IMG/VR virus record: IMGVR_UViG_3300013093_000022
Span: 62,514 to 126,513 of that record
Source of the DNA: a virus
Direction: 5' to 3' (one strand)
DNA: 64,000 nt
A program made the translations under genes and the position numbers. The notes beneath the pieces are model-generated. The model was given only the letters and a program-made list of their open reading frames with translations. It was not told the DNA's origin and did not search any database. Shown here in pieces: positions 38,101 through 59,648 of this stretch (position 1 is its first letter; every line of letters begins with the position of its first letter).

Positions 38101-38360
38101 GGATCCTCGTTGCCGTGGTTGACGAACACCGGCTTGCCGACGAACGTCTTGTAGTACTTCTTCAACTGGCTCGACGGCCAGGCGTCGTAGTTCTGGTTCA
38201 CCCGGGCCGAGATCGCCCTCACCTGGGTGTACACGAAACCCGGTTTGGCCTTCCACCCCTCGGCGGCGGCCCCGGCCTTCCGGTAGTCGGCCACCAGCCG
38301 GGTCGCGTCGTCGCCCGAGAGGGAGGCCCCGACCTTGGAGGAGCTGATCCTGCGCTGCAC
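35130..38360 (-). CDS. capsid maturation protease fused to scaffold-like polyprotein
   Basis: N-terminal TFVGKPVFVNH...SVSMG...FFELSYVFDPADETA prohead-protease motifs with a Zn insert; very acidic C-terminal modules. Confidence 0.8.
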   Translation of the reverse strand: MQRRISSSKVGASLSGDDATRLVADYRKAGAAAEGWKAKPGFVYTQVRAISARVNQNYDAWPSSQLKKYYKTFVGKPVFVNHGNEDPERARGVVVAARYIEKGADRYVETIMETDAVRFPKLAREIVSGGLDSVSMGVEAGFTICSVCDHRATDESNMCDHILLHKGEHMKNAKTGKRTLVYEKCYKLGFFELSYVFDPADETAVVSRVISANRRSAGAVDDVQFSDESGAHSVAVLPGGHRLSVFSPDETFPDSRWQWVHEEGGPHPHNPHIVDYRPSNWGHAESADHAKEQALASYRNALGAKNLGVDEWDPNQDLRALYGATIKKAKRKGDFMAHWYKKAELPRLLKNKAPEDIDTLRDESDDDTDLFHHWVQSPMELRAPSMDRSHKLDADQEKGGLDDDRNSESAEEVAMPSGKKKNNPVMPINPPELKKGRRTTKGVGMSRYYAADEDEGYGDEAGPEDEAYGGDEGYGDEDPGYGDEQGGPDMGGEDMGPEMGGGDIESLLDEAEGDIEAFESEEGLEDGDGGDYDDDGDDDSDPMGDYDEDYAGADGQQMEARRRAALDYRDDESGSSYRDHSISRHRGNGMYSVMLDGKGMHSADTMDGIKDIVDDHLDGGNKKESGYLYADPVRSARSRGNKRGGTMRRTTLASRTAKGRHFMADDSGHTDGGPYGIDDSQGNSEEVFISQVPGAEAVAAPVEGDSPISNTENNLVASRRPQFDPGHYQRLADVVRALPPAQRGAMARKMVAMLTADHPNFNGRTFYEAAAVPVVKRGNRYFYAEELEDPTTVDPELSGTDVQELAGDDFDSLALDNVETQPKDASIHAFRAFDSWLHKATGRTARQHRNANFIRRAAASYSARWQNPQAKLATLFPTLEYVLAEARKFEGGNMRQRRAQDESLSVAAPQDRIDVEAPVKNVTDADAQASQFDLSDFAHNAGDQLADPVLDVVDGNAGTWAPDKGKESRKLATGVEAVRLADAYIKAYPGTYSEKDRWTLTARFETLRSPVVRDRIRVLEAVVADQGKQSKKTARKVAAAGSRGTRGIPVGFANQRVASTRRISASDPDTDSALFF
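36432..36466 (-). promoter_or_regulatory. intragenic late promoter CTGTGA-N20-AATAAGCGA upstream of in-frame ATG 36422
   Basis: Bipartite motif immediately followed by GAGGAGG RBS. Confidence 0.6.
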
Positions 38361-38363
38361 GGG

Positions 38364-41300
38364 CTACCCGTCCTCGTAGTGGGTGCCCCGCAGGTCGAGG
38401 CTGCCCAGGTTCCGGGCCCCCTTCGGGTGCGACTCGTCCTCCAGCTCCCGCTGCTCGGCCGGGGTGTAGTTGCGTCCCGCCGTGCGGAGCATCTTCTGGG
38501 CCGCCGCAGCGATCCCGTCGTCGCTGTGCGACGGCTCGTCGAGGAACCCGCCGCCCGAGGCGTGGAAGCGTCGAACCACGTCCGAATCGTCGAGGCTGGC
38601 GGCTTTCGGGACGGCTTTGAGGAGTTCGGTGATGGGCTTGCCCATATTCGCGACACCTCCCCCTTCACCGTCCTCCTCGTCGTCTTCCTCTTGGTTCTTT
38701 CTCTTTGGCCCGACCTCGCCCAGGCCGACGTCGCCCTTGTCGTAGGCGAGGTTCTTGGGGTTGTTCGGGTTGAAGTAGCCCCGCTCGCCCCCGTCGAAGG
38801 CGTCGGCCTCGTACACGAGCGAGGCACCCTTGGTGTTGCTCAAATCGCCGACCGTGTGGCCGCCGGACTGCTCGGCCGCCGACTCAAAGCCGCCGTGGCC
38901 CAGGCCCTCACCCGACCCCCCGGCGCTCAAGTGACCGGCCGACACCCCGCCCAGGGACCCGTAACCGGCGTCGCCCGAACCGGCGAAGTCCCCGTTGGCA
39001 CGGACACGGCGCGACTTCTTCTGCTGGGGCAGCCGCTCGCTGTACACCGTGACGTCGCCGTCGCAGTCGGTCATCCAGGTCTCGTTGTGGCGGGGCCGCT
39101 CATGCTCCTTGACGTAGTCCTCCGACGTCGTCGACCACTCCTGCCGGTTGGGCCCGGAACCGGCGAACGAGTAGTCCATCCAGTTGGGTCCGCCCTTGGT
39201 CAGGAAAGCGCCGTCGGCCTCGAAGTACATCTTCGCGAACCTCTGCGGGTCGCTGCTGCCGTGGAACAGGTGGGTCAGCCCGGACAGGGCGCTCCCGATG
39301 CCGCTGCCGATCGAAGGGATCAGCGACGCCCCCTCGCCCAGCAGGGTCGGGACCATCGACATCATGTTCGCCGCACCGGCACCGCCGCCCATCTGGGGGC
39401 GCTGCCTCTGCTGGTCGGAGTCGGTGCCGCTCGGGGTGCCGTTCGGCTTCGGCGGGGCCATCGCCGTCCCGTTGTTCCCGTCGTGGGTGCCCTGCATGGG
39501 GCCGCTCGGGATGATCTGCTGGCCTTGGGCGTTCGTCGTCGGCTTCCGGGGCGTGTTCACCGAACCGCTCGGCGGTGCCACCGACTTGTAGGCCCCGCCC
39601 TGTCCGCCCGGGGTGCCGGGGGCGTTCGGGGCGGTGCTTGAAGCCGCTGCGGCGGCAGGCTCGTCGTCGTCGTCGGCACGCTTCCACAGCGCGGCCTGTT
39701 TCATCGCGACCAGCGGCGAGGCGTCGAAGCCACGCTCGTGGAGTTCGTCGACGACGTTCCTGACCTCGTCGTTGTGGTCCCGGCAGTCCTGGAAGTGGTC
39801 CGACGGCTCGTCGTTCGACAGGTCGCGCAGCCTGTTCAGCAGGTCCTCGTCGGCGACCATCTTCAGCGACGAGAAGTGGACGATCCCGTCCTTGGGCATG
39901 TCCTCAATGCCCTCTGCGTGCCATGCGAAAGCCGGGTGGTGCTCGGTGATCTTTCCCTTGGCGGTCCGGCGGGCGTCCTTGCCCCACTGCTTGCGCTCGT
40001 GTTTGTGCTGCTCCCATTCGGGCAGGGCCTCGTAGCCTTCCACGGCGTCGGCCCAATTGTTCCTCTGCTGCTTGGACCGCCAGTCGTCGGGGTCGCCCAT
40101 GTAGTCTCGGGGGTCGCCGGTCGCGACCCCACCGGCCAGTTTGCGCCGGTCCCGGCGGCGGGCGTCCTTGACGTCGCGCCCGGGGGCTTGCCGGTCGTTT
40201 CCAGACTCCCCCTCGTAGGGCAGGGGTGCGTACTCGGTGTGGTCCACCGGTGCCCCGTTGCAGCAGTCGGTCACCGGGTACTCGTGGCCTTGGGCGTAGG
40301 GTCCGCGCTCGTCGTAGTTGGGCTCCTCGTACTCCCAGTGGATCGGCGGTGCCGGGGCCCCGCAGTTGTCGCACACCTCGTGGTTCCCGGCGGTGTCGGG
40401 CATCGGGTCCTCATAATCTGAGGGGTCGAGGTCCTCGGGGCGGGGGTCGGCACCCGGGCCCAGCAAACCGGCCCGGCGTCGAGAGGCCATGATCTGGTCG
40501 GGGCCGGTCGTCTCCCGGTCGTCGCCCAGGTCGGTGAAGTAGTGGTTCTGCTCGTCCGACAGCTCCGGCACCCAGTACAGGTTCGGTGTCAGCCGGTGGG
40601 GCTGGTGCTTGAGGACGTCGGCCTTCTTCTTGTAGGCGTCGTCGGGGTTGTTGCCGTACCCGTCCTGGTCGTAGTCGCGCTCCCATGACGGGGAGCAGCC
40701 CGAGTCCTTGCCCTGGACGAAGTCGAAGACCTGCTCGGCCTGCTCCCGGGTGGCCGGCTCCTCCAGCGAGGTCAGGAAGTTGTCGGCGGCCGTCATGTCG
40801 ACGTGGTTGTCGTTGTTCTCCTTCGCCCACGACTTGAACTCGTCGACGACCGACCCCTTGCGCTTCTTGAAGTGGTGGGGGTTGGTCTTGGCCTGCTGGG
40901 ACTGCTGGGCCAGGTAGGTGGCGTAGCCGTGGGAGCACAGGCGGCCGACGAACGTGAACTTGCGCTTGAAGGCCCACTTGCCCCACTCGCAGCCGCACTT
41001 CCAGTTCGCGATCGCCCTCTTGCCGCCCGAGAAGCCGCCGTTCGGGTAGGCGGAACCGTTGAGGATCATCACCTCGTAGGTGGCGTGGTCGCCGTCGACG
41101 CTGGCCAGGATCGCGTTCGAGTCGGACGCCTTGACGTGGACCCCGCCGTCGCGCAGGATCCGGACCGCCTTCTGCCGGACGTCCTTCCAGGCTGCGGTGC
41201 GGATCGACCTGTCGGCCAGGACCAGGTCCATCCACTCGCCGGTCTCCCGGTCGAGCCCGGCGTCGAGCTCCATCGAGCCCTTGCGGACGATCGCCCCGTA

Positions 41301-42461
41301 CGGGTCCTGCCGGAAGCGGCCGACCTCGCTGTGGTCGGGGGCGTCGGGGATTGAGGCGTACCTGTCGCCCAGACCGGCGGGCCGCTCCCATTTGGCCTCG
41401 TGGTGGGCGAACGGGTCGTCGCCGTGGTCCTGGTGCTCGACCTCGCGCCGGTTGCCGCAGTCGTTGCAGCGGACCGTGGTGTCGTCGCCGAGAAGCTCCT
41501 CGTCCTCGTGGTCGCACGTGTCGGGGTCGTACGGGAAGTGGTCCTCCTGGACCCGATCCGGGCCCTCGCTGCGGAGCCGGTGCTCCAGCCGGGCGGCGTC
41601 CTCGTATTCGGGCGAGTTCAGGTCAACCTTGTCGGGGTTGAACAGGTCGAGGGGGACGATGCCGCCCGACTCGTGGAACAGTGAGCTCTCGTGGTGGGTG
41701 TGGCGCTCGTCGTCGTAGGCGGCCTTGCCGGTGCAGTAGGGGCGGCACTCCTCGCCAGCGTCGGCACCGCACGCCCCGCAGGGCTCGTCTTGGTGGGCGG
41801 CGTCCTTGGCGAAAAGGTCTTTGTGCAGGTTGAGTTCCTGCTGACGCTTTTTATTCCACTCCTGCTGCCGGGGACTGTGCTCCCGGACCCAATCCGGGTC
41901 GTCCTCGGGGTCAACCTCAAAACCATCTTCGTCGTGGTAGGCCGCGTCCTTGGCGAACAGGTCGGGGTTGGGGCCCGGTCCCTCAGGCTCGTCGCGCCCC
42001 TCACCGGTACGGGAGTCGGTCCATTGGGTCCGCTCGTCGGCGTCGATCTCGTGGTCGGGGGAGATCGTCTGCTCGTCGCGGAAACCGTCGACCGGGTACT
42101 GGGGGGTCCAGTCGTAGGGCAGGGTCGTCGAGTTGTCGAAAACGTGGCCCGACGGCTCGAAGCCGAAACCGCCCGACGCCTCGCGCCGGGTGCCGTGGAT
42201 CGCCCAAGCGTCCCCGCCGTGGTGGCCGCCGCCGAAGTGGGGCTCCTCCATCGGGGTGCCCGGGGTGTGCTCGGCGTAACCGGCCGCCTCCATCTCGGGG
42301 GCGTACGAGAACAGGTCCTCGCCGGCCGTGATGATCGCCGGGTCGGTGGCGTCCATCCACATCTCGAACCCGTAGCCCGCCACCTTGTAGCGGGTCTTCC
42401 CCATCCGGCCGCGCTCAACGCCGACGATGTCGCCGTCACCGAACTGAGTATGAATGGTCAC
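38364..42461 (-). CDS. large modular acidic head-associated protein with SWIM zinc finger
   Basis: 1365 aa; WKCGCEWG...LCSHG; several Cys4 mini-modules; many basic-x-Ala motifs. Confidence 0.8.
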   Translation of the reverse strand: MTIHTQFGDGDIVGVERGRMGKTRYKVAGYGFEMWMDATDPAIITAGEDLFSYAPEMEAAGYAEHTPGTPMEEPHFGGGHHGGDAWAIHGTRREASGGFGFEPSGHVFDNSTTLPYDWTPQYPVDGFRDEQTISPDHEIDADERTQWTDSRTGEGRDEPEGPGPNPDLFAKDAAYHDEDGFEVDPEDDPDWVREHSPRQQEWNKKRQQELNLHKDLFAKDAAHQDEPCGACGADAGEECRPYCTGKAAYDDERHTHHESSLFHESGGIVPLDLFNPDKVDLNSPEYEDAARLEHRLRSEGPDRVQEDHFPYDPDTCDHEDEELLGDDTTVRCNDCGNRREVEHQDHGDDPFAHHEAKWERPAGLGDRYASIPDAPDHSEVGRFRQDPYGAIVRKGSMELDAGLDRETGEWMDLVLADRSIRTAAWKDVRQKAVRILRDGGVHVKASDSNAILASVDGDHATYEVMILNGSAYPNGGFSGGKRAIANWKCGCEWGKWAFKRKFTFVGRLCSHGYATYLAQQSQQAKTNPHHFKKRKGSVVDEFKSWAKENNDNHVDMTAADNFLTSLEEPATREQAEQVFDFVQGKDSGCSPSWERDYDQDGYGNNPDDAYKKKADVLKHQPHRLTPNLYWVPELSDEQNHYFTDLGDDRETTGPDQIMASRRRAGLLGPGADPRPEDLDPSDYEDPMPDTAGNHEVCDNCGAPAPPIHWEYEEPNYDERGPYAQGHEYPVTDCCNGAPVDHTEYAPLPYEGESGNDRQAPGRDVKDARRRDRRKLAGGVATGDPRDYMGDPDDWRSKQQRNNWADAVEGYEALPEWEQHKHERKQWGKDARRTAKGKITEHHPAFAWHAEGIEDMPKDGIVHFSSLKMVADEDLLNRLRDLSNDEPSDHFQDCRDHNDEVRNVVDELHERGFDASPLVAMKQAALWKRADDDDEPAAAAASSTAPNAPGTPGGQGGAYKSVAPPSGSVNTPRKPTTNAQGQQIIPSGPMQGTHDGNNGTAMAPPKPNGTPSGTDSDQQRQRPQMGGGAGAANMMSMVPTLLGEGASLIPSIGSGIGSALSGLTHLFHGSSDPQRFAKMYFEADGAFLTKGGPNWMDYSFAGSGPNRQEWSTTSEDYVKEHERPRHNETWMTDCDGDVTVYSERLPQQKKSRRVRANGDFAGSGDAGYGSLGGVSAGHLSAGGSGEGLGHGGFESAAEQSGGHTVGDLSNTKGASLVYEADAFDGGERGYFNPNNPKNLAYDKGDVGLGEVGPKRKNQEEDDEEDGEGGGVANMGKPITELLKAVPKAASLDDSDVVRRFHASGGGFLDEPSHSDDGIAAAAQKMLRTAGRNYTPAEQRELEDESHPKGARNLGSLDLRGTHYEDG

Positions 42462-42479
42462 AGACCCTCCCAGATATGC

Positions 42480-42515
42480 TCACCTATTGAGCAGGGGAGA
42501 GGCGCGAGACTACAG
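42480..42515 (-). promoter_or_regulatory. putative late promoter CTGTAG-N21-AATAGGTGA
   Basis: Best match to the consensus. Confidence 0.7.
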
Positions 42516-42551
42516 GTTTACGACGCCGTTTCCCCCGACGGCGCTCGCCCC

Positions 42552-43331
42552 CTAGTCGAAACTGATCGGCAGGGTGTCGGGCACCAGCTCGACCAGCAGC
42601 CGCCGGAAGCCGTCCATCGTCACCCGGGGCTGGGGCACGTCGAGGACCAGTCCCCCGGTGTTGGCGTCAAGGTGGCTCTGCGGCAGGACCGACATCCAGC
42701 CCCGCTCGATCGCCCACTGCATCACCCGGTACCGCCTGTCGCCTCCCCGGCCGATCCAGTTCCGGCCCTCCAAGTGCTTGAACAGCCTGTTCTGGCCGAC
42801 CTTGATCCCGGCCCGGGTCAGTGCCTGGGCCGTGTCGCGGACAGACATGTCACCGCTGGCGTTGAGGATCCTGTCGGCCACCAGGGCCCGGGGCCTCAAT
42901 TCCTCGACCTCGGCCGCCAACTCCTGGACCCGGCGTGCCGTGATCGACAGGGCCCGGTGGACGATCTCGTCCTCGGTCAGCGCGGGCCGGGGGTCGCCGT
43001 ACCGGCCTGTCCTGCGGATGGCCGGGAGAACCTCGCCGGTGATCCAGCGCCGGAAGCGGACCGCCTCGGGCTTGTCGCTGCGGATGACGACCTCGTACAT
43101 GCCCGACTCGGACACGATGACCGTCTGGCGCATCTGACCTCGGGCATTCTCAACCTCAGTTTGACTGAGGTTCATTGCATCAAGGCGGTCGGCGACCATC
43201 GACGGGTTGCCGATGTTCAGCACCGCACACAGGTCGGCCAGGACGAACCACGGGTCGCCGTCGACGAGCAGGACACGGACCTGGTGGGTGTCGAAGACGA
43301 ACCCCTCAAGATCGGCGGGGCCGACGCTCAC
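42552..43331 (-). CDS. BRO-N / KilA-C phage antirepressor
   Basis: DGDPWFVLADLCAVLNIGN, VSESGMYEVVIRSDKPEAVRFRRWITGEVLPAIRRTGRY, GQNRLF. Confidence 0.92.
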   Translation of the reverse strand: MSVGPADLEGFVFDTHQVRVLLVDGDPWFVLADLCAVLNIGNPSMVADRLDAMNLSQTEVENARGQMRQTVIVSESGMYEVVIRSDKPEAVRFRRWITGEVLPAIRRTGRYGDPRPALTEDEIVHRALSITARRVQELAAEVEELRPRALVADRILNASGDMSVRDTAQALTRAGIKVGQNRLFKHLEGRNWIGRGGDRRYRVMQWAIERGWMSVLPQSHLDANTGGLVLDVPQPRVTMDGFRRLLVELVPDTLPISFD

Positions 43332-43846
43332 GCCGTCACCCCCTTACGGGCGACCAGTGCGGACAGCTCCGCCCGGCCGATGGCCGGGTCGGCGATCACG
43401 GCGCGGGCGAACGCCTTGAGGGCGTCGGCGGCCTCGTGGTACTGCTTCCAGCCGCAGGAGAACAGCACGTCGTGCTTGTCCTCGCCCCCGTAGGGGCCGT
43501 AGGGCTGCACGTCGGCGGTGGGGCACCCGTTGATGCAGATATCGTCGGAGTTGCGGTGCTCGTAGGCCGCGAACGTCCAGCCGCCGACCGAGACCGTGAT
43601 GCCGTGCTCTCGGCAGTTGTCAAACGTCCCGAAGTCGAGCAGCTCCTGCTCGCGGTAGAACTCGTCCAGCAGGCCGGCCTCCCCGAAGACACTGGAGGAG
43701 ATGCGGACGTTCTCGTTGCCCGCCGCGATCTCGTCGCGGGTCTCCAAGGTTCCCAAAGTCTCGGGGAGCAGCTCATGGAGCCTCTGGGCGGCGGCGTGAC
43801 GCTGGTCGATCAGGGCGGTGAGGGCGGAGGCGAATGTGTTGGTCAT
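43328..43846 (-). CDS. hypothetical protein
   Basis: 172 aa, leaderless ATG 8 nt after an ECF promoter. Confidence 0.75.
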   Translation of the reverse strand: MTNTFASALTALIDQRHAAAQRLHELLPETLGTLETRDEIAAGNENVRISSSVFGEAGLLDEFYREQELLDFGTFDNCREHGITVSVGGWTFAAYEHRNSDDICINGCPTADVQPYGPYGGEDKHDVLFSCGWKQYHEAADALKAFARAVIADPAIGRAELSALVARKGVTA

Positions 43847-43854
43847 AGCCGGGT

Positions 43855-43882
43855 CAACAGCGCACGCCCCGACACTATTCCC
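43855..43882 (-). promoter_or_regulatory. ECF-sigma-type promoter GGGAAT-N18-GTTG
   Basis: Identical spacing to the other copies. Confidence 0.75.
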
Positions 43883-43898
43883 GGGGTCGGGGAAACTT

Positions 43899-44162
43899 TT
43901 AGGCGGCGGCGGGCTCCTCGCCCGGCAGGGGTGCCACCAAAGCGCTCGTCACCGGCACGCCCTCCGAGTGGTCGCTGACCTCGCGGGTCACCCACAGGTA
44001 GCGGGACGTGAAGTCGGGCTCGGGCCACTCCAACTCGACCGCCGTCTTCGACAGGGCCACCCGCATGTTCGCCCGGCCGTCCGGCGACGAGAAGTCGTGG
44101 CCACGCCACGAGCCCCAGAAGATGCCCCCATTGGGGCACTGCAGACCGTATTCCAGCATCAA
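43899..44162 (-). CDS. hypothetical protein
   Basis: 87 aa directly after the portal; start at 44162 or 44159. Confidence 0.65.
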   Translation of the reverse strand: MMLEYGLQCPNGGIFWGSWRGHDFSSPDGRANMRVALSKTAVELEWPEPDFTSRYLWVTREVSDHSEGVPVTSALVAPLPGEEPAAA

Positions 44163-44171
44163 AGACCCTTC

Positions 44172-47100
44172 TCAGAAGTTCCGACTCGGCCGCGTCCCCG
44201 TGATCGACTCGTAGTCCTCCAGGAGGCGCTCCAAGAGTTTACGGGACTCGGGGGCACCGCCGCCAACGATCTCCGGCCAGTCGGCCACGATCTCGGCCTC
44301 GTGGCCCTGGGCGTGCAGCAGCTCGTAGAAGCCCGGGTCGTGGACGAGCCTCTCCACCGACACCGGGGCGGCGGCACGCCGGTGGATCGCCTGCTCCACC
44401 CTCGACTGGTCGGCCAGGTACGACCTGCGGTACGACGACGGGCCAGACTTGAAGTTGCGGAGCTTGTTGGCCAGCTTCGCGATGTCGCGGGGCGAGGCCC
44501 CGCCCCTGCCCGGCAGGTGGACCGGCGGCAGCCGCCGGGCACCCTCCTTCGGCTGGCGGGCTGGCAACTCGCCGCTGCCCCGCCACTCGTCCGACTCCTC
44601 GGGGCGCTGCCGGTTCTTCGGCACGATCACCTCCGCCGAACCGCCCGGTGCGGACACCTCTCCGCCCGGCGGGAAAGCCGACGGGCCCGCCGCCCTCGGC
44701 CCGTGCATCGTCGCCGTCACCTGCTGCTGACCGGCGGCCGGTGGGGCGGCCTGCTGCTGGTCGGCCGACTGCTGCTGGGCGTCGCCCGCTAAGGGCTGCA
44801 TCGTCGTCCCCGGCAACAAGCCCATCATCCCCGCCGGAGACGCCTGAGCGATCTGCTGATCCATCATCTTCGTCTGGTCCTCAAGCTGCTCGGTCTGAGC
44901 CAAACCCTGACGCAACTGCAGGGTCGCCATCAGGTGCTGGGTCAACTCGGGCGGGTAGGCGTAGTCCTGCTCGTCGCACATCTGCTGCAGGACGTGCATC
45001 GCCTCGGCCTGGGCTAGGCCCTTGTCGATCGTCTCCTGGGCCTGACGCTCCAACTCCTGCTCAAACTCGAACGGGATGTTGATCGCCAGGGTCTTGTCCG
45101 AGATCGGGACGCCCAACTGCTTCAACTGGGACACGAAGTTCCGCTCGGTCGCCTCGTCGCGCAGGTTCAGGGTGTTGTGCGACACCAGGCCAGCCGTAAC
45201 ATGGGTGTGGGTGCTGGTAATTCCCAGGGTAACGATATCGCCGCCCTCGGGGAGGTGAGTCACCGACAGGACCTGGTCCCACTCGACCGGACGCGGGGCC
45301 TTCCTCCCCCGTGTGGATGGTCGGGCCATGTCATCCAGCGCGGCGATCTTGGTGCCGATCATCGGTGTCAGGGTGTCGCGCAGCATCTGGAAGTAGTGGT
45401 TGTTGCTGACTGTCAGGTGGTTCACCGACTGCATGCCGGGGCCCTTTTGAGACTTGTACCGGTAGGCGTAGGAGCGGACTTGGGCGCGAATGCCCAGCGA
45501 CTCGAAAAGCACCTGGCAGTCGTCCAGCAGGGCACGGTTGACTGAACCGATCTTCAGTCCAGAACGACGACAGGCGTAGCCGTCGGCGTCAAAATATCCG
45601 GACAGGAACGCGGCGCGACCCTTGGCCCCTGCCGCCCAGACCATCGGCGGAACACGTTTGGTGTGGCCGTTCTCGCCCCACATGCCCTGCTCGCGGAGCA
45701 GGGTGTGTAGCGGGTTCCGCAGCACATTTCCCTTCCAAGGTGCAGGCCGGGAGAACGCCCGGTACCAGACCTTGTCGGTGCGGGCATCGGCCTTTCGGCG
45801 AGCAGTAAGACCCATCCGCTCGGCCTGCTCGCAGACGAATGCATCCACCTCGGGGTCGCTGACCGACAAAGACACATGAGTGGTGGAATAATTTCCATCA
45901 CCGACCAGCAACCCCAGAAAGCGCAGCATGTCTATGTCGTCGTCGGAATCGACGTGTGCCGTCAACTGACCGGCGGACGTGCGGATCAGGCTGTCAGCGG
46001 TAAGATTTTCGGCCGACACCCACCCCCGGCTGGTCCAGAACGGGTGGTCGGCGGTGCAGCGCACCGTGCGCCCAGTGGCAGTGGCCACCTCAACCAGGTG
46101 GTCGCGGTGCTCGATGCCGGTGTGTAGCGCGGTATCAATAACGTAGCCGGTGCCGTCCCAAGCGATGACCTCATCGCCGGTCTGGATGTCCTCAACATTG
46201 CGCTGTCCGGTAGGCGTGAGGACCTGCGTGCCAGGAACGACACAGGCGAACTTCACCTCGGGGATCAGCAGCTTCGGTACCCGGACCGTGTACTGCTCGC
46301 CCGTCTCCTCGTCCTCCTCGACCACCGTCTCGTAGATCGGGACCCGCGTCCCGCCCTTGAGGTCGTAGTCGTAGAACTCCTGGGCCTCCGACACGATCTC
46401 CATCCTCTTGCGGAGGTGGCGGACGACCTTGTTCTGGGCCGATTTCATCAGTTGCTCGCACACCTCGCGGTTGATCGCCGTCCCGGCGTAGGTGTCGCCC
46501 GAGCCGCCCATGATCAGGCCCTGCCCGATCCCCCACGACTGCATGATCTGGGCGTCGACCCGGTCGTAGTCGGTGTCGAAACGGGGTACCGACTCGCGGC
46601 CGAACACGCTCGTCACGTTCAGCCCGAAGTTGTGGCACAGCAGCTTGAAGTCGGCCGCCAGCGCCGACTGGATGTCGTCCCGCAGGTCCTCCAACTCGGC
46701 CTGGTCGGGGATCCACGGCTCGCCGTCGCCCATGTTCTCGATGCCCAGCGTCGCCAGGATCATCGGCGCGTACAGGCGATCGCAGTTGTGAACGGCGATC
46801 GGAGAGCAATACGAGTTGTCCTCTTTAACTTCGAGGTTGTACACCGTCTCTGTGACCTGATGGTGCCTGACGGACCGGACCTCCACCCAGTACCCGCCGC
46901 GATCGTTTCTGGCCGCACGGCGGGGCGTCTTGACCGCTGTTACGGACCCCCCTGTCCAGCCCCGTTCGGCGTCCCGTTTACCCGAAAACACCGAGGTGAT
47001 CATTCCGGCTCGGCGCATCAGCCACGCCGCAGATTCCTGCAGGGTTCGGTGCTTGGCCACACCAAGGTCACGGACATGGTTGCGGCAGCCATCGCCGTCA

Positions 47101-48872
47101 AGCCACCCCTCTACAAGGTGGTGTGTTTGTTCGGGGGTGAGGGTGAAGGCCCACGACGGAAAGCGTTTAGTCTCGCCGACGCCACACATTTCCCGGAAGA
47201 AAGGGCCCAGCACGGTGCTGTTCAGTTCCACGTTGATCGACTTGATGCGAGACCCATCCGAACGAAATCCTGTGGCTTTGACGATCGCGTCAAGTCCGAA
47301 AACATCCTTGATAACTTTGGCGGCCCGGGCAGCCTTATCAGATTCACCCTCGCCGACCACAATCCGAACCGATTTGCTGTTGGCGCTTCCATCTGCGACG
47401 TGAAGGCCGATCAGCCACAGCAGGTCGTCGGTGACCTTAAACTCGTCACCGCAGGACCGGACTGCTCTGTTTCTTAGGGCCGACAAGATTTTCTCGTCCA
47501 GGTGCTCACCCAAAAAGAGCGAAACCTTTTCCAGACCGGGGGAATCGGGGTGGAGAACCTGATCGTACTTCCGAACATCGGCGGCCCTCACAAAGCCTTC
47601 AGAAAAATTGGAATGGCTGTGCATGTTGTATCGGGCCGGGACGTTTACAGGCCGCCGGACATAGACCGGGTGCTCACCCGTCAACGTCATCGGCCGGTCG
47701 TACCACCAGTTCAGAGTGACGCCCGGTTCGTCGGCCTCGCGGATCATCGTCCGGATAACCTTCCGGTACCTTCCCCTGTGGGTCAGTACGGCGTCACCGG
47801 CCTTGACGTTCTGGATCTCAACAACGCCATTGGAGGTCAGAACGGGCTGGCCGTAGACCAGACACACGGCATCTTGTGCCGCGTTGAGGCTTTCCTCCAG
47901 CATCAGGGTCCGGAACGACCGCAGCAGGTGGGGGGTGCCCCGTAGGTCCCACCAGGCGGCCTTGTTGACCATGCGGCTGACCAGGGCGTCGGAGATGTCC
48001 AGCCCGTCGTTCTGGGCGGCGGCTGAGATGATCTCCGGGTAGTTCTTCGTGAGTTGCTGGTACTCCCAGGTCCGCTCGTACTTCTCGGACGGCGACTCGC
48101 CCGCCAGGGCCATCCCGCCCGGGCCGGTACGCAGCGACTCGACCAGGTCCTTCACCAGGAGTTGGACCCTCTCCTGCTCCACGAACAGCGACTTCGACAC
48201 CCGGACCATGTCGGGGTTCAGGATCTCCTCCGACGACCAGATGCCCAGGTCTTCGTTGAAGTGGGCCAGGGCCGTCACCTCGCCGACCATGAAGTACTCG
48301 CGCAGCAGGCCGTCGGGCAGGAACTCCTCATAGTTCAGGTCGTTCATGAACATCTGGGTGTAGAACTTCTCGATCTCCGGGTCCTTGCACACGAACTCCA
48401 GGCCCATGACCGGGAACTTCGAGTAGATGTCGATTAGCAGCGGGACTAGGGGGTGGGTGGCGAAAAACAGACGACACCACCTTCTGAGCTCGGTCAACTC
48501 GTCGGGGTCGTGGACGTTGAACGGGACGCCCTTGTCCATGAGGCTGCCCAGGGGCTGGCGGACCTTCGGCAGCACCATCTGGGTGTTGGCGGCGGTGCGG
48601 GTCATAGCCCCGCCCGAACCTGCCCGCCGGAACCTGTCCTGGCGCATCGCGGCCATCGCGGCCCGGTTCTGGACGTCGCTGACCGTGCCACGGCTCTGCA
48701 AGTCGGACGCCACCTTGCGGGCCTCCAGGCGGGCCATGACGGGGTTGTTGGGCATGGGGAAGCCGGAGGCCTTGAGGCGGCGCATCTCGGCGTCGCCGTT
48801 GCCCACGTAGAGGCCGGAGGCGGTCACCTGCCGGGCCGAGTGGCGCTGGTCATTGATCGGGAAGTCGGCCAC
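44172..48872 (-). CDS. portal protein precursor with two inteins (spliced ~849 aa)
   Basis: Helical extein (LIDIYSKFP...EEILNPDMV...RGTPHLLRSFRTL) located between terminase and protease; two intein blocks. Confidence 0.8.
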   Translation of the reverse strand: MADFPINDQRHSARQVTASGLYVGNGDAEMRRLKASGFPMPNNPVMARLEARKVASDLQSRGTVSDVQNRAAMAAMRQDRFRRAGSGGAMTRTAANTQMVLPKVRQPLGSLMDKGVPFNVHDPDELTELRRWCRLFFATHPLVPLLIDIYSKFPVMGLEFVCKDPEIEKFYTQMFMNDLNYEEFLPDGLLREYFMVGEVTALAHFNEDLGIWSSEEILNPDMVRVSKSLFVEQERVQLLVKDLVESLRTGPGGMALAGESPSEKYERTWEYQQLTKNYPEIISAAAQNDGLDISDALVSRMVNKAAWWDLRGTPHLLRSFRTLMLEESLNAAQDAVCLVYGQPVLTSNGVVEIQNVKAGDAVLTHRGRYRKVIRTMIREADEPGVTLNWWYDRPMTLTGEHPVYVRRPVNVPARYNMHSHSNFSEGFVRAADVRKYDQVLHPDSPGLEKVSLFLGEHLDEKILSALRNRAVRSCGDEFKVTDDLLWLIGLHVADGSANSKSVRIVVGEGESDKAARAAKVIKDVFGLDAIVKATGFRSDGSRIKSINVELNSTVLGPFFREMCGVGETKRFPSWAFTLTPEQTHHLVEGWLDGDGCRNHVRDLGVAKHRTLQESAAWLMRRAGMITSVFSGKRDAERGWTGGSVTAVKTPRRAARNDRGGYWVEVRSVRHHQVTETVYNLEVKEDNSYCSPIAVHNCDRLYAPMILATLGIENMGDGEPWIPDQAELEDLRDDIQSALAADFKLLCHNFGLNVTSVFGRESVPRFDTDYDRVDAQIMQSWGIGQGLIMGGSGDTYAGTAINREVCEQLMKSAQNKVVRHLRKRMEIVSEAQEFYDYDLKGGTRVPIYETVVEEDEETGEQYTVRVPKLLIPEVKFACVVPGTQVLTPTGQRNVEDIQTGDEVIAWDGTGYVIDTALHTGIEHRDHLVEVATATGRTVRCTADHPFWTSRGWVSAENLTADSLIRTSAGQLTAHVDSDDDIDMLRFLGLLVGDGNYSTTHVSLSVSDPEVDAFVCEQAERMGLTARRKADARTDKVWYRAFSRPAPWKGNVLRNPLHTLLREQGMWGENGHTKRVPPMVWAAGAKGRAAFLSGYFDADGYACRRSGLKIGSVNRALLDDCQVLFESLGIRAQVRSYAYRYKSQKGPGMQSVNHLTVSNNHYFQMLRDTLTPMIGTKIAALDDMARPSTRGRKAPRPVEWDQVLSVTHLPEGGDIVTLGITSTHTHVTAGLVSHNTLNLRDEATERNFVSQLKQLGVPISDKTLAINIPFEFEQELERQAQETIDKGLAQAEAMHVLQQMCDEQDYAYPPELTQHLMATLQLRQGLAQTEQLEDQTKMMDQQIAQASPAGMMGLLPGTTMQPLAGDAQQQSADQQQAAPPAAGQQQVTATMHGPRAAGPSAFPPGGEVSAPGGSAEVIVPKNRQRPEESDEWRGSGELPARQPKEGARRLPPVHLPGRGGASPRDIAKLANKLRNFKSGPSSYRRSYLADQSRVEQAIHRRAAAPVSVERLVHDPGFYELLHAQGHEAEIVADWPEIVGGGAPESRKLLERLLEDYESITGTRPSRNF
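45174..46244 (-). mobile_element. intein 2 in portal with LAGLIDADG endonuclease (357 aa)
   Basis: KFA|CVVPGTQV...TADHPF...FLGLLVGDG...FLSGYFDADG...VSHN|T. Confidence 0.93.
46785..47864 (-). mobile_element. intein 1 in portal with LAGLIDADG endonuclease (360 aa)
   Basis: DAV|CLVYGQPV...TGEHPV...LIGLHVADG...LVEGWLDGDG...VYNLEV...AVHN|C. Confidence 0.93.
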
Positions 48873-49259
48873 CTATCCCTCGACCCTCTGCATGCAGACC
48901 TCCGAGTACCAGACCTCGTCGGGTGCCTCCGGGTAGGCCTTCTCGTCCAGCGCCACCAGGAACATCGGGACGACTGGGCTCGCCAAATCCTCGGGGTTGA
49001 ACGAAACCCTCACCACGTGGCCGACGCCGTCGTAGACCTGGCCCCCGGTCTTGCACGACACCTTGTCGCCCTCCTTGTACGGGACGGTCAGGGCCAGGAA
49101 GGCCAGCAGCGCCGCCTCGCGGCTCTCGGGCATCAGCGACGCGCAGTCCCGGCAGTAGTCGCGGTCGGCACCGTCGACGACCGCGATGGCCCGCATCTTC
49201 TTACACCCCCAGCACAGGGATGTCCTATCCCCGGGTGTATCGCTGGGTTCTGTGGTCAC
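48873..49259 (-). CDS. hypothetical protein (CxxC...CxxC plus SH3-like part)
   Basis: 128 aa abutting the portal start; start uncertain. Confidence 0.6.
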   Translation of the reverse strand: MTTEPSDTPGDRTSLCWGCKKMRAIAVVDGADRDYCRDCASLMPESREAALLAFLALTVPYKEGDKVSCKTGGQVYDGVGHVVRVSFNPEDLASPVVPMFLVALDEKAYPEAPDEVWYSEVCMQRVEG

Positions 49260-51165
49260 GGCTGTGCCAATCGGGGGAGGTCTTTCCCTCGCTCACACCT
49301 TTGGACCGGGTGTCGGTCTTGGGGAGGTGGTCACTGGGGAACGGGTCGTCGTCATCGTAGTCGTCGCCGTTCGCACGCCGCAAACGCCGAGAGCCTTTAA
49401 TGCGGGGGTCGTCGGGTCCGGGGCTGTCGTCGGGATCCCAATTCAAAGGGGTGCATGTCTCATCCTTGATGTGCAACTCCGGCGGCGTCCAGAAGTGTTT
49501 GACGCACCCGTGGACCTTGTTGAAGTAGTTCTGAAGTGTCGGATCCACCGGGTCATCGTCCGCCCCGTCCAAGCGGTTGGTGATGTGGGTCCACATAACA
49601 TTGCTCAGCATGGAGCCGGGAAATGAGGGGTCCGACCGGCGGCGCTCGTGCTCACGCGCCAACTGGCCATCCTTAAGCTCGACGACTTGGTCCATGAGGT
49701 CTTGGAGCTCAACGTCGTCATCCGTGCCGTACATGTCACCAGCGCCGGGCGGCAGGCCGGGACCATCATAAGGCTCGGGTTGCCAGTCCCCGTCCTCCTT
49801 CGCACGCCGCAAACGTGTGCGACGGTTCGCGACGATGACATTGTCTCGGACCGGGATCTCGCGGGCGATGAACTTCTCGGCCGCCGCCTGGTGACGGTCG
49901 CCGCCGGTGCCGATCACGTACGTGTTCCAGATCTTGCCGCACTTGCAATGGTGGTAGTCGGGGACCTGTACAGGCTCGCCGCACGCACACTCAAAACGGC
50001 GGGGCTTGTTGGAGATGTAGCCGTTGAGGTGGTTGTCCCACTCCCAACCGGCGACCCTGTGCCGCTTGGGTGACACGGACGGTCCCCAGCCCATCCAGGC
50101 CCGCTTACGGCGGCCCAGGTGCTTGATCTGGTCCTGGAAGATGCGGGCGTGGTCCTCCTCGTCGGAGATCACCTCCCGCATCGCGGCCGCAGCGTCGGGG
50201 TCGCCCTCCCGCATCGCGTCGTCGGCGTAGTCGTCGTACTCGCCGATCGTCTTGATCTCGTCGCCCTCGGCCTGCATCAGGTCGTTGCGGAGGTCGGCGC
50301 GACGCCGCCCACCCTCCTTCGGCGGAATCGGGGCGAACGAGTCGCCCGGGTGCGGGTACAGCCCCAAGGCGTAGCCGTTGTAGGGCTCCGCGTGGACCCC
50401 TATGGACCGGAGTTGGTCCTTCAGCGTGTCGTCCGCTGCGGCGTAGTCGGTCCAGCCCGGCCGCCCCTCAAACAGGATGTGAGGGCCTGGGCCGCTATCG
50501 CTCGGGACCGTCTCCCCCGTGAACGGGTGCTGGTAGGTGGGGAGCCAGTCTGGGTGGAGCATCGGCCCAGCCCCCGACTCGTAGGCCTTCCGGCCGGACG
50601 GCACGTCGTCCCGCTCGCCGTGCTCCTCGTCCCAGCCCATCCAGTCGCGAACCATGTTCAGGGCCCGGCGCTGGGTCAGGTCATCAAGCCGGGGCTTGCC
50701 CTTGGCGGTCCGGCGTCGGGACAGCATGTACCGGCCCAGGGCCTCGTTCGCCGAGCGGTGGGCGTCGCGGTCGGTGATCCTCCCGGCCGCATGGTGGTCG
50801 GCGATCTCGGAGATGATCTGCTTGAACACCGCGTCCGGGTGGTGGCCGGCACCGACACGGGCACCGAACTCGTCGCGCACCGTCGACGGCGACTTCGACC
50901 ACGGCTCGTCGGGGCTGGAGGACCGCTTCCGGCGGGCGGTCTGGGTCGGCAGCTTCGGCAACTGGGGCAGCTTGGTCGTGGCCGGGGTCAGGGCCGCCCC
51001 GCCGACGCCTTGGCTCTTCAGCTTCTGGACCCCCTGCGGGCCGACCCTCTTCCGGTTCACGAAGTCCTGGGCCGCGCCCGGGTCGCCCCGGTTCAGGCCC
51101 TGCTGCTCTGCCTTCTGTTGGGCCCTCTGCCAGTCGGCCATCAGGTCGGCCCGGCGGGGCCTCAC
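49225..51165 (-). CDS. modular head-associated protein with half-ferritin and zinc modules
   Basis: 646 aa; EGDEIKTIGEY...DEEDH; CACG...CKCG; possibly also made as a -1 frameshift fusion. Confidence 0.78.
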   Translation of the reverse strand: MRPRRADLMADWQRAQQKAEQQGLNRGDPGAAQDFVNRKRVGPQGVQKLKSQGVGGAALTPATTKLPQLPKLPTQTARRKRSSSPDEPWSKSPSTVRDEFGARVGAGHHPDAVFKQIISEIADHHAAGRITDRDAHRSANEALGRYMLSRRRTAKGKPRLDDLTQRRALNMVRDWMGWDEEHGERDDVPSGRKAYESGAGPMLHPDWLPTYQHPFTGETVPSDSGPGPHILFEGRPGWTDYAAADDTLKDQLRSIGVHAEPYNGYALGLYPHPGDSFAPIPPKEGGRRRADLRNDLMQAEGDEIKTIGEYDDYADDAMREGDPDAAAAMREVISDEEDHARIFQDQIKHLGRRKRAWMGWGPSVSPKRHRVAGWEWDNHLNGYISNKPRRFECACGEPVQVPDYHHCKCGKIWNTYVIGTGGDRHQAAAEKFIAREIPVRDNVIVANRRTRLRRAKEDGDWQPEPYDGPGLPPGAGDMYGTDDDVELQDLMDQVVELKDGQLAREHERRRSDPSFPGSMLSNVMWTHITNRLDGADDDPVDPTLQNYFNKVHGCVKHFWTPPELHIKDETCTPLNWDPDDSPGPDDPRIKGSRRLRRANGDDYDDDDPFPSDHLPKTDTRSKGVSEGKTSPDWHSRDHRTQRYTRG

Positions 51166-54104
51166 CCTAAAGGGGGGCGGCCCCTGGGGGGTTGGCGACC
51201 TTGGGACGACTTCTTCCTGCCCGGGGCGAACTTGCCGTACTGCTCATCAAACGGGTTGTCGCCCGGCTCGTGGAGATAGCCCTTCGTCAGGTTCAGCCCG
51301 TAGTTGTAGTGGCCGCCGCACTGGCTTCCCTCACTGTCGCAGTGCTCACAGCCGGGCTCCGGCTCCCCCCGCTCGAGCCGGTTCATCAGGGCGACCTCGA
51401 AAAGCTCCGGTGTGAGCTCCCCTGAGCCGACCATCTTCTTGCGGACATCGCGGAGCCGCTTCGGGAACTCGTTCATGTCAAGTATTTGCCGACCCAGGTA
51501 GTTCGCGTCGTGCGGGTGCATGCCCAGGTCCTTCAGCTTCTGGGCGTACTCAGGGGACGGCTCCCTTCCAAGCATCCCCGGGAAGTACATGGGGTAGCTG
51601 GCCGACCCGTCTCCGTAGGTGAGGCCGCTGGCGGTGCGAATCCCGGTGGAGCCGCCGCGAACGGCGGCCTCACCTAAAGGGCGGCGGCCCCTAGAGGACT
51701 TCCTCTTGCGGCGCTCTGACTTGTCCGCGCAGTCCTCGCAGTGGAAGTCCAAGTCGCCGTGACCGCCGGTCTCAGTGACGTACATCTGATCCTTGGGCAT
51801 CTCGACCCCGCAGGAGGGGCAGGAGGCGTGGTCGCCGTCGTCCCAGTTCCCGGCCTGACGGCGACGGGACGCCCCTCTCCCCTTGCAGTCGTGCGACTTG
51901 ATCATCCGCTCGGCATCGGGGCCGGTCATTGCCGCGCCGCAGTCCGGGCATTCGGCCCGGCCCGCCTGACGGCGGCGTGCGGACTTGCGGTGGGTGTCGC
52001 ACTTCTCACACGAGCCCTCGGCGCAGGGCTTGGTGCCCGGAACCCTCTTGTAGCCCTCCCAGCACTCGCAGTTCTTGGCCTGTCGCAGGCGGCGGGCCTG
52101 CATCTGCTGCGGGGCCTGCTGCCCGGCCAGACCGGCCGCAGCCGGGTCGACCTGCGGCATCCCACCGCCCTGCGGGGCACCGCCCGGCTGCTGGGGCATG
52201 ACGTTCACCGTACCCGCCGGTGGGGACACGTTCAGCGGGTTCGTCAACTGCTCGGCCTGCTGGATCGTCACCAAGGCCTGCTGCAGCGGGGCGATCGTCT
52301 CCTGGAACTCCTGGGCCTTCTCGTTCAGGACCTTCGTCAGGGCCTCGTCGGCCTGCTGCAGGTAGTTCCGGTCGGCCAAGAGGCGCAACGCGGCGTGGTG
52401 CCTGTTCGGGCGCGAGGTGTCATACCCCTCGGGAACCGGCCAGCGGGCGTCCGGGTCGCCCGGCTCGCCGCGCTCCAGTTGACCCTCGGGCCTCCCGCTG
52501 TAGGGGTTGCGGGCGTCCCCAAAGGCCCAGTCGTCGAGGTCCATGACGTTGTGCTCAGCGGCCGTGCGGCCGCCGATCATCCCGGCGATGATCTGGAACT
52601 CGCGGCTCGCGGTCGGCATCATCGGCTGCGCCGGGTTCATCGCCATGTCGGGGGTCGTCGACGGGGCCGCCGGTGTGGTGCCGGTGCCGGGCCCGCCCTG
52701 CGGGGGCATCGCCGGGGGTCCCGACGGGGCAGCCATCGGGGCGTCGGCCCGCATCAACCGGGCGATCCGATAGAACTCCGGGTACATTCCCGCCCCCTTC
52801 ACGAAGTTGTGGTCGCCGTCGTCGTCGTGGCGCTCCACCTCGTACGGGCTGGACGACCGCGAGTCGGGGCCGACGAAGTCACGGTCAACTTTGCCCTCTG
52901 CGCCCTGGTCGACCCGGCCCTTGTACGAGTCGAAGTCGCCCTCGGGCTCCAGCCGGTCGTAGGTGTGGGGCTCGTAGGTCGAGTGGTTGTCCACCTCGGG
53001 GTGGTCGCGCTCCTCCTCGAACTCGGCGTAGTAGCGGCGGCCGCCCCTGGGCATGCCGGTTTGACCCAACCCGGGGACCGGGGCGGGGGGCGGCGCTGCC
53101 GGGTTCGGGGACGGGGTGGGGCCACCGGCGGGGGGAGCGGCTGCCGCCGGTGCCCCGAGCGGCTTGTACAGCTTGTCGCCCGGGTGGATCAGGTCGGGGT
53201 TCTTCCCGATGTCGGTGCCCGACGACATAGCCCCGGTGTTGGCCTTCTCCAGGTCGCCCAGGTCGGATCCCATGCCCTTGGCGATGTTGCTCAGCGTGTC
53301 GCCCGGCTTGACCGTGTACTCGCCGTCGCCGATGCTCCCCGGGGCGATGTCGCTCGCAGACCAGGAGGGGCCGCCGCTCCCGGAGACCCCGGAGAGTGGC
53401 TTCCCGAGGCCGCCACCGGCGGCAGGAGCCCTGCCGGGGCCGGCCGCCGGACCGACTGGGACGGTGTCGCCCGAGAGGACCCCCTTGTTGTAGGCGGCCG
53501 AGTTCTCCGCCGCCGCGTTCTCCGACAGGCCGGTGGGGCTCTTGGTCGGGACCGGGACGCCGTTGTTGCGGTACACGGTCACGGGGGCACCGGGACCGCT
53601 GCTCCCAGGAGGTGGTCCGTTGGGGTTGGCCTTTGGAGCCGACTTTGGAGCCGACTGAGGGTCATTTATCCCGCCGCTATTGAATCCGTTGGCGAAACTG
53701 GCACCGCCCGCGAATGCGCCGGGTGCATCTACCGTCGGCCTCGGCGCTCGCCCCTCATCCAAGCCACCACCATTGAATCCGTTGGAGAAACTGGGCTCTT
53801 CGTTTTGATCGTCGGCCGTCCGGCGGGTCGACGCCTCGCGCCACTCCCGCTCCAGGGTCTTCAGGACCTTCTTGTACACGCCCAGCCGGGCGTGCAGGTG
53901 GGGCTCGATGGTCTTGCAGATGTCGACGTAGGCCAGCTTCGCCCGGTCGTGGAAGGCGTCCCGGTCGTGGGCACCGAACAGCCACGGCCCGTGCTTCTCC
54001 CGGACGTCGTAGGTGGCGGCCGCCAACTTGTCCTGGGCGGCCTGCTTGCGGACCTTTTCCTCGTCGTCACCGAACGACGCGACATCGAAAACACCGACGG
54101 ACAT
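51162..54104 (-). CDS. modular head-associated protein with LysM domain
   Basis: Start revised to ATG 54104 (GAAAGG RBS); YTVKPGDTLSNIA...NPDLIHPGDKL LysM at ~53160-53321; several Cys modules. Confidence 0.8.
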   Translation of the reverse strand: MSVGVFDVASFGDDEEKVRKQAAQDKLAAATYDVREKHGPWLFGAHDRDAFHDRAKLAYVDICKTIEPHLHARLGVYKKVLKTLEREWREASTRRTADDQNEEPSFSNGFNGGGLDEGRAPRPTVDAPGAFAGGASFANGFNSGGINDPQSAPKSAPKANPNGPPPGSSGPGAPVTVYRNNGVPVPTKSPTGLSENAAAENSAAYNKGVLSGDTVPVGPAAGPGRAPAAGGGLGKPLSGVSGSGGPSWSASDIAPGSIGDGEYTVKPGDTLSNIAKGMGSDLGDLEKANTGAMSSGTDIGKNPDLIHPGDKLYKPLGAPAAAAPPAGGPTPSPNPAAPPPAPVPGLGQTGMPRGGRRYYAEFEEERDHPEVDNHSTYEPHTYDRLEPEGDFDSYKGRVDQGAEGKVDRDFVGPDSRSSSPYEVERHDDDGDHNFVKGAGMYPEFYRIARLMRADAPMAAPSGPPAMPPQGGPGTGTTPAAPSTTPDMAMNPAQPMMPTASREFQIIAGMIGGRTAAEHNVMDLDDWAFGDARNPYSGRPEGQLERGEPGDPDARWPVPEGYDTSRPNRHHAALRLLADRNYLQQADEALTKVLNEKAQEFQETIAPLQQALVTIQQAEQLTNPLNVSPPAGTVNVMPQQPGGAPQGGGMPQVDPAAAGLAGQQAPQQMQARRLRQAKNCECWEGYKRVPGTKPCAEGSCEKCDTHRKSARRRQAGRAECPDCGAAMTGPDAERMIKSHDCKGRGASRRRQAGNWDDGDHASCPSCGVEMPKDQMYVTETGGHGDLDFHCEDCADKSERRKRKSSRGRRPLGEAAVRGGSTGIRTASGLTYGDGSASYPMYFPGMLGREPSPEYAQKLKDLGMHPHDANYLGRQILDMNEFPKRLRDVRKKMVGSGELTPELFEVALMNRLERGEPEPGCEHCDSEGSQCGGHYNYGLNLTKGYLHEPGDNPFDEQYGKFAPGRKKSSQGRQPPRGRPPLG

Positions 54105-54137
54105 GGGGCACCTTTCAAGAGCGGAGAAGAACAACCT

Positions 54138-59619: not shown

Positions 59620-59648
59620 ACAGTAGCCGCGACTCAAGAAGCTATCAA
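59620..59648 (-). promoter_or_regulatory. SigA-type promoter TTGATA-N17-TACTGT
   Basis: 5/6 match at -35, TAnnnT at -10, 17-nt spacer. Confidence 0.5.

Follow-up and report, generated by a model that had tools for sequence, protein, structure and literature searches.

The window considered here, a stretch of 64,000 nucleotides (nt) from a 126.5-kb IMG/VR virus contig (IMGVR_UViG_3300013093_000022), encodes several very large putative head polyproteins whose accessory modules are present in some phages and absent from their relatives. At two places the absent segment ends exactly at a pair of in-frame DNA repeats, and a short run of basic residues closing in alanine is enriched across the family and stands at domain ends. 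We favor, at a probability of about 0.6, an explanation in which P0004, P0003, P0001 and the extension of P0005 would be very large, putatively capsid-internal cargo polyproteins, each made up of conserved core domains strung together with accessory modules that can be dispensed with. The evolving unit would be a module plus its own C-terminal joint, (A/S)-R-R-R-(Q/T)-A or the variant F-A-K-x-A, with the next domain beginning right after the alanine. The prohead protease of the phage would recognize the joint, Ala being P1, and would cut the chain into separate proteins inside the prohead. Other phage polyproteins and free-standing early genes could both supply modules, which could be lost or swapped at joints; because every module would bring a joint and enter behind an existing one, a new module would come to be bracketed by two in-frame joint-coding sequences, seen as DNA repeats. 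Precise in-frame deletion and some exchanges are probably aided by short stretches of identical DNA at the joints, of 17-18 nt in the two youngest cases, and that surviving indels end at joints is probably due mainly to selection that keeps domains and processing sites intact.

Modules Present in the Window and Absent from Relatives

The putative head polyprotein P0003 (646 amino acids, aa; 49225..51165; this and all other features of the window given below are on the minus strand) has a conserved core at aa 358-450, a WxGWGP...REIPVRxxVIVA Zn-ribbon, with variable modules on both sides. The metagenomic protein P0007, 93% identical to it in the best segment and 88-89% identical overall, is 369 aa long and differs by two clean deletions, which are modules A and B. 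Module B, 143 aa (P0003 aa 456-598; 49372..49800), lies between two copies of a 17-nt repeat encoding RLRRA, the upstream copy (49799..49815) at the end of the conserved core and the downstream copy (49370..49386) at the tail of the module. The window sequence is ...VIVANRRTRLRRA·KEDG...(module B)...GSRRLRRA·NGDDYDD (a raised dot marks the boundary behind a joint); at this place P0007 reads ...VIVANRRHLRGA·NDEDYDD, keeping one joint (ANRRHLRGA·NDEDYDD) in place of RLRRA, the 143-aa module and RLRRA. Module A, 136 aa (aa 155-290; 50296..50703; phrog_19324), lies between SRRRTA and GGRRRA, the window reading ...SRRRTA·KGKP...(module A)...GGRRRA·DLRND and P0007 reading ...AKKRRA·DLRND; its ends both carry the motif, with no DNA repeat. 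Related phages were found in Logan contigs of other lake-water runs, and module A is also missing from contigs of three of these runs, from two studies, with a skip of 420 nt (50304 to 50725, with 12 other letters instead) in runs X3 and X5 and a skip from 50304 to 50722 in run X4 of the second study.

In P0001 (putative head polyprotein, 1365 aa; 38364..42461; phrog_2940, 5e-93), the homologue of Myrna gp96 and Pupper gp93, a 48-aa segment (aa 174-221; 41799..41942) lies between two copies of a 14-nt repeat encoding DLFAKDAA, at 41944..41957 (upstream, where NPDLFAK is invariant in four of four aligned homologues) and 41800..41813 (downstream). The window has DLFAKDA, then the 48 aa, then DLFAKDA·AHQDEPCG; in P0037, a protein with 81% identity to P0001, the corresponding sequence is NPDLFAKKA·AHQDEPCG, and two runs of one study, X3 and X5, have contigs that are without exactly 144 nt between the copies of GCGTCCTTGGCGAA, passing from 41795 to 41940 with 18 nt that fit either side. 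The first-pass annotation had described module B as lower in GC and the DLFAKDA segment as AT-richer, and this is borne out by GC content at third codon positions (GC3), at 0.762 and 0.729, respectively, vs 0.91-0.95 in the conserved flanks. The low GC3 of both polymorphic segments fits a recent gain in the window's lineage.

A further pair of repeats in P0001, of 15 nt and encoding KDARR, has its upstream copy (40156..40170) near the end of module X1 (VKDARRRDRRKLA·GG) and its downstream copy (39967..39981) at the end of module X2 (WGKDARRTA·KG). In this variable region (39972..40472; module X1, aa 664-776; module X2, aa 777-830) P0037 shares X2, differs in X1 and has an additional module, X3, and P0038 and P0039 have none of them. 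P0037 also gains a 97-aa module with a 15-aa duplication at its flanks. The fourth pair, of 11 nt and encoding RRRQA, is in P0004, with its upstream copy (51964..51974) at the tail of a widespread KNCECWEGY...CEKCDTH Zn-ribbon module and its downstream copy at 51853..51863. Between them, as annotated, is a Cys/His finger, a 37-aa mini-module (GRAECPDCG...SRRRQA; 51852..51962), and after the first RRRQA every relative examined (P0162-P0165) has unrelated sequence. The Zn-ribbon module itself is duplicated in P0163 and occurs in a P0003-type protein in P0162 and P0008.

The earlier claim that indels of relatives are bounded by the repeats thereby stands for the 17-nt pair (P0007) and the 14-nt pair (P0037; runs X3 and X5), and no direct case was seen for the 15-nt and 11-nt pairs, whose copies are at joints with differing or absent modules in relatives. 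For the first two of these pairs, gain or loss of modules in frame at the repeats is likewise shown, and throughout the family modules turn over at basic-x-Ala joints. Among the contigs of related runs none joins across the 17-nt pair, and the low cover of 49410-49935 in runs X3-X5 was not used as evidence. Contig joints from 39950 to 40018, 40137 to 40476 and 51159 to 51676, where the intervening sequence is not known, were treated as weak, and a 278-nt contig of run X4 that returns from 51857 to 51672 has too little length and depth to be interpreted. The source run, X1, gave the full form only, in assembled contigs, which drop rare variants.

Positions of Indel Ends Across the Family

Indel ends were counted in 343 pairs of homologues at least 70% identical, with insertions of at least 25 aa; 395 insertions were reduced to 178 distinct ones and 106 clusters, and to 105 after one intein was dropped. 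With a strict motif, 42 of the 105 had it at the left end, 28 at the right end and 16 at both ends with the same offset (null fractions 0.070, 0.066, and 0.003, respectively), and with a broader motif the counts rose to 53, 37, and 24 (null 0.128, 0.124, and 0.008); the pairs are related to each other, so that these are counts and not independent events. At least three identical residues were found across the two ends in 17 of the 105. Inspection by eye of L005 and L011, which have 87-89% DNA identity, gave cases such as ARHQA·...ARRRYA· vs SRRQA· and SRQAA·...VRDAA· vs RHEAA·. Also by eye, one indel had GGTGGA(A/G)GGTGC at both ends and another had GCTCGCC.

Repeat Pairs and Codon Bias

The four repeat pairs of the first-pass annotation are real, each pattern occurring exactly twice in the window at the positions given above. 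Their spacings of 429 (17-mer), 189 (15-mer), 144 (14-mer), and 111 nt (11-mer) are all multiples of 3, and in-frame reading on the minus strand gives RLRRA, KDARR, (DL)FAKDA(A), and RRRQA, in P0003, P0001, and P0004. Beyond the motif the two copies of each pair are dissimilar (36-43% identity over ±75 nt). Exact direct repeats of at least 14 nt within 500 nt were then compared, for the five large genes, with 300 codon-order shuffles and with 300 synonymous shuffles that kept the protein. Eight were observed against means of 0.31 and 1.69, respectively, and none of the 300 shuffles reached 8 in either control, so that as a class the repeats also exceed the codon-preserving expectation and chance was rejected as their cause. 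For repeats of at least 17 nt, one was observed vs 0.36 expected, a number reached by 33% of synonymous shuffles. Transposon-type target duplication was rejected as well: repeat length ranges from 11 to ~45 nt, the inserts form part of the translated reading frame, and neither a transposase nor end repeats are present in them.

It is conceivable, if somewhat unlikely, that the repeats are a by-product, the same joint peptide written under biased codons with no role in recombination, and that illegitimate indels are sorted by selection. Codon usage agrees with this for three of the four pairs: KDARR (codon-identity P = 0.07) and DLFAKDAA (P = 0.03, with two synonymous differences) are in major codons, the copies of RRRQAG have 3 of 7 codons in common, and the 11-mer is near chance, with at least two matches in 2 of 100 dinucleotide shuffles. 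The polymorphic module A, with motif ends and no DNA repeat, and the frequency of a 17-nt repeat somewhere in the synonymous shuffles are on the same side. The excess of repeats with the protein held fixed is harder to accommodate, as are the 18 nt common to both sides of the 144-nt deletion junction, the flanking duplication in P0037 and the 17 indels with at least three residues in common across their ends. So is RLRRA, whose two copies are identical in 5 of 5 codons, including the minor codons CGT (usage 0.11), TTG (0.14), and GCG (0.24), the first two of which had already been annotated as rare; the probability that the second copy repeats the codons of the first is 1.4e-4. Taken singly, the 17-mer alone exceeds codon bias, and the other three repeats are explained by it. 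The joint RRTAKG, a further case that the first-pass annotation did not list, is encoded by the same 16-17 nt in three genes, at 36385-36400 (P0005), 39955-39971 (P0001), and 50699-50715 (P0003); its copies are all in major codons, so that codon bias may suffice here too.

The Joint Motif and a Putative Head Protease

Among 259 homologues (279,758 aa), [RK][RK]xA was observed 1087 times vs 307 expected (3.5-fold), and alanine was the most enriched of the 20 residues at the final place, at 3.5-fold, the next residue reaching 1.9-fold. The logo from 1085 sites reads (A/S)-R-R-R-(Q/T)-A, constrained from -5 to 0 and without downstream preference, and conserved domains begin straight after the alanine (·WxGWGP, ·APDYLQKA, ·KNCECW, ·KGxxTEHHPAFAWH). 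Within the window, the four polyproteins have 20 motifs per 4077 aa vs 13 per 9225 aa in 17 other open reading frames (ORFs; Fisher p = 4e-4). In an AlphaFold2 (AF2) model of P0003, all six joints are at the ends of confident segments or in blocks with a predicted local distance difference test score (pLDDT) of 40-63.

P0005 (1076 aa; 35130..38360; phrog_2774, 1e-190), a putative protease with an extension, matches the 'head maturation protease' family phrog_18299 at aa 57-205 (E = 2.7e-22). This N-terminal match is followed by ANRRSA·G and a long acidic and basic extension with more copies of the motif; in L013 and L014 AGKR(T/S)EA·G directly follows the protease domain. A scan of viral contigs with the protease domain confirmed no relative. 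From these sequences we infer that the prohead protease cuts at the motif. In T4 and phiKZ, head proteins are cut by the prohead protease at short motifs, and Ala at P1 is in line with the herpesvirus assemblin, whose fold phage prohead proteases have.

Alternatively, the motif may not be a protease site, the proteins staying intact and the Arg-rich joints serving for DNA binding in the head, for capsid targeting or as flexible linkers. Internal head proteins do contact DNA via basic residues, according to the available part of PMC3012670, and basic clusters are enriched with Ser too in two of the window proteins. This alternative is nevertheless unlikely, given the specificity for alanine, a logo that is one-sided with conserved domains starting at +1, a motif copy directly behind the protease domain, and the stringing together of modules that have unrelated stand-alone homologues.

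Identity and Origin of the Modules

The AF2 model of P0003 (mean pLDDT 66) has at least five separate confident segments, at residues 8-60, 90-153, 288-350, 365-440, and 483-570. Module A resembles a free-standing 180-aa gene of the siphophage Argie. For module B, a full-library search returned 7 proteins at E ≤ 0.001, the window's own included and two of them weak and unused. The homologues are a stand-alone 119-aa protein and parts of three unrelated polyproteins (residues 55-203, 334-468, and 1003-1152), in which module B then carries a '...DPxDPR[IL]xGAxRxxA(A)' tail. The tail of module B in the window (...DDPRIKGSRRLRRA) is of the same type, and because this type is common to the window and to unrelated polyproteins, the comparison points to import of the module plus its tail from a similar polyprotein array. 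Pfam gave LysM in P0004, sub-threshold ferritin-like matches in P0003 and none in P0001, and NCBIfam gave nothing relevant for the polyproteins. Modules A and B were rejected as inteins or homing elements, having no Pfam match and lacking the N-terminal Cys/Ser and C-terminal His-Asn of the Hint type.

The bracketed segments might instead be diverged copies of neighboring sequence, produced locally by tandem duplication or by slippage where the sequence is disordered and of low complexity, and not acquired cassettes. Such repeats exist in these proteins, as GYGDE and acidic repeats in P0005 and as FSNGFNGGG/FANGFNSGG in P0004; a similar A-x-H-x-DE sequence follows both DLFAKDA copies, and P0163 has a tandem duplication of ARRRFARLHQA·KNC.... 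As a general account it is highly improbable, since identity in the flanks of the four repeat pairs is no more than 36-43%, homologues of module B occur in unrelated polyproteins and as a separate gene and module B has their linker type, module A matches a siphophage gene, and relatives have unrelated modules at the same joints.

Evidence Against the Cargo-Polyprotein Explanation

Several results weigh against the explanation of these proteins as module-plus-joint cargo polyproteins. The motif is at both ends of only 16-24 of the 105 insertions, and 54 of the 105 have no identical residue across the two ends. One L005/L011 indel is bounded by VEG·...VEG·, with no basic motif, and among the relatives compared no indel ending on both KDARR or both RRRQA copies was seen. 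At the DNA level, indels between L013 and L014 and between L005 and L011 have exact microhomology of 0-1 nt in 13 of 13 cases, with gaps as aligned, which argues against homology-driven recombination and is among the points that suit repeats arising as a by-product of codon bias. Of the annotated recombination at the repeats, the part that makes DNA identity the driver is for this reason, and because codon bias accounts for three of the four repeats, only faintly indicated. [RK][RK]xS is also enriched in two window proteins, so that part of the motif signal is clustering of basic residues.

The protease is assigned from one PHROG match: Pfam and NCBIfam gave no match for it in P0005, a PDB sequence search gave just chance zinc-finger matches, and an AF2 model from a 3-sequence alignment reached a pLDDT of 35 and was not used. 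The literature searched yielded neither proteomic or N-terminal data on this group of phages nor a description of a cleavage motif or of proteolytic processing for cluster C-type actinophages, a result that also suits joints that are left uncut, and neither 'cleav' nor 'protease' occurs in the available part of the Myrna capsid paper (PMC7150772). As to the modules, Foldseek found no match for the P0003 model in the PDB at E ≤ 1e-3, and Pfam found none for modules A and B.

Gene Layout, Relatives and Mobile Elements

The head genes of the contig match those of cluster C mycobacteriophages and of Gordonia and Rhodococcus myophages, the relationship to cluster C being distant. The nearest named relatives are Myrna and Cane17 (cluster C mycobacteriophage myoviruses), Gordonia phages such as Pupper, and Rhodococcus phage E3, and they align in conserved cores alone, covering 12-31% of each protein. 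The head block on the minus strand has the order polyprotein, polyprotein, portal, ..., polyprotein, protease, major head protein, with a few small genes, one of them Ant-like, between portal and P0001, and the major head protein after P0005. The first polyprotein, P0004 (putative head polyprotein, 990 aa; 51162..54134; phrog_2922), consists of a LysM domain (Pfam, 1.3e-6), a conserved 'NYLQQADEALT...PPAGTVNV' core and a C-terminal module of ~170 aa, and has three Cys-rich mini-modules, each closing on RRRQA or a basic run. P0003 begins in a 4-nt overlap (GTGA) with the stop of P0004. In Myrna, the homologues of P0004 and P0003 are a single gene, gp87, directly upstream of the portal gene.

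The portal gene (44172..48872) contains two inteins, at 46785-47864 and 45174-46244, the second with a LAGLIDADG domain; this second intein is absent in relatives, contigs of runs X3 and X5 skipping from 45163 to 46245, and the portal of L002 has an intein at a third site, after RRW·C. The large terminase subunit also holds one intein (within 59645-62953), and inteins occur in some P0001 homologues (P0100 vs P0085). The Ant-like anti-repressor gene (42552-43331) has 75-88% nucleotide identity over ~115-280 nt to Ant genes of the unrelated temperate mycobacteriophages Dori, Firehouse51, and Brujita, a similarity that speaks for recent exchange with Mycobacterium phages. Directly downstream of the major head protein gene is a free-standing HNH endonuclease gene (32539-33480). 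In L005 the P0003 homologue has a 591-nt insertion across which its own frame remains open, and within this insertion another HNH endonuclease ORF (2480-3112) is encoded in a different frame; the hot spot of this insertion is just before WxGWGP, where the window has module A and the ferritin-like piece.

The P0004/P0003 Junction

At the junction of P0004 and P0003 (51152..51185; RGRPPLG, stop) an in-phase -1 slippery heptamer, CCCTTTA, is found at 51168-51174. The corresponding X XXY YYZ heptamer is CCCAAAA in L005 (~2040-2075), L011 (~2175-2210), and L002 (~705-741), and at four of four loci it is in phase and precedes the stop codon of the upstream ORF by 6-24 nt, with the downstream ORF in the -1 frame. 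Heptamers in phase are infrequent, with 9 in 10,845 codons. The predicted shifted product, ...RGRPPL-RVRPRRA·DLMADW, resembles the fused homologue P0186 (...RGRRPLVGDRRQA·DV), and in Myrna gp87 and P0162 the two are fused outright. A programmed -1 frameshift joining P0004 to P0003 is possible. An internal near-copy of the junction sequence (SSRGRRPLGEA; 51662..51692) is also present, so that RGR(R/P)PLG plus slippery heptamer occurs twice, as 20 nt with one mismatch followed by a 1-nt indel; between the two copies is the C-terminal module of P0004, and the skip from 51159 to 51676 mentioned above as weak comes from a contig of run X3.

A more far-reaching proposal combines both levels. Here the same ~15-18 nt would serve as protease site and as preferred crossover, cargo would be exchangeable in frame among phages with the same joint grammar, in analogy to integron arrays, and a conserved -1 frameshift at P0004/P0003 would set the output of the downstream array. 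We regard this combination as rather doubtful.

Relation to Known Systems and Implications

Polyvalent proteins of phages and conjugative elements have been likened to the polyproteins of RNA viruses; the proposal is that they accompany the DNA and are processed to give individual units (Iyer, Burroughs, Anand, de Souza and Aravind, 2017; PMC5512222, in the part available, to which the comparisons here refer). Like them, the head polyproteins of the window place many unrelated domains in one polypeptide encoded among late and structural genes: P0003 has several unrelated globular domains, as judged from the AF2 segments and from modules A and B with their independent homologues, and the polyproteins flank the portal, head protease and major head protein genes. 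Processing of polyvalent proteins is ascribed to embedded peptidases (MPTase and others) and their cargo consists of recognizable conflict domains, whereas P0001, P0003, and P0004 have no embedded peptidase, LysM is the sole Pfam match and a short motif is at every joint. Neither a joint motif nor joint-bounded indels are described for polyvalent proteins in that part of the paper.

The head protease gp245 of phage SPN3US offers a second parallel, again from the part of the account available (PMC10052503): one head protease acts on many substrates at a short non-prime-side motif and also cleaves itself. However, its motif ends in Glu (at sites such as ASE, AVE, and ALE) and 13 of 14 sites remove N-terminal propeptides, whereas P1 is proposed here to be an Ala that follows arginines, and cleavage would divide a concatenation of modules; turnover of modules at the sites is not reported there. 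T4-type internal proteins, as covered in the available part of PMC3012670, are likewise diverse injected anti-defense cargo with only a short conserved prohead-targeting signal in common, but they are separate genes with an N-terminal signal, whereas here the cargo would be fused in frame with the signal at the C-terminal end of each module. The shuffling of promoter early stem-loop (PeSL) cassettes in T4-type genomes is similar in that short repeats bracket non-essential cassettes, with insertion, deletion and replacement at the repeats (Arbiol et al., 2010; PMC2839356, available in part). PeSLs are intergenic promoter-terminator cassettes, whereas the repeats described here are coding, in frame and would double as a protein-level signal. 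The arrangement suggested by the present sequences, a coding in-frame joint at every module boundary that coincides with indel ends, was not found described in the literature searched.

If the joints are protease sites, this group of phages packages a changeable set of small proteins, strung on conserved head proteins and freed in the prohead, and such cargo may include anti-defense proteins. The rule of (A/S)RRRxA followed by a new domain would then find injected cargo in hundreds of actinophage genomes, including those of cluster C, and the joints would offer a ready way to load foreign proteins into these capsids. The polyproteins would also be a natural case for how protein-level constraints shape where recombination products survive.

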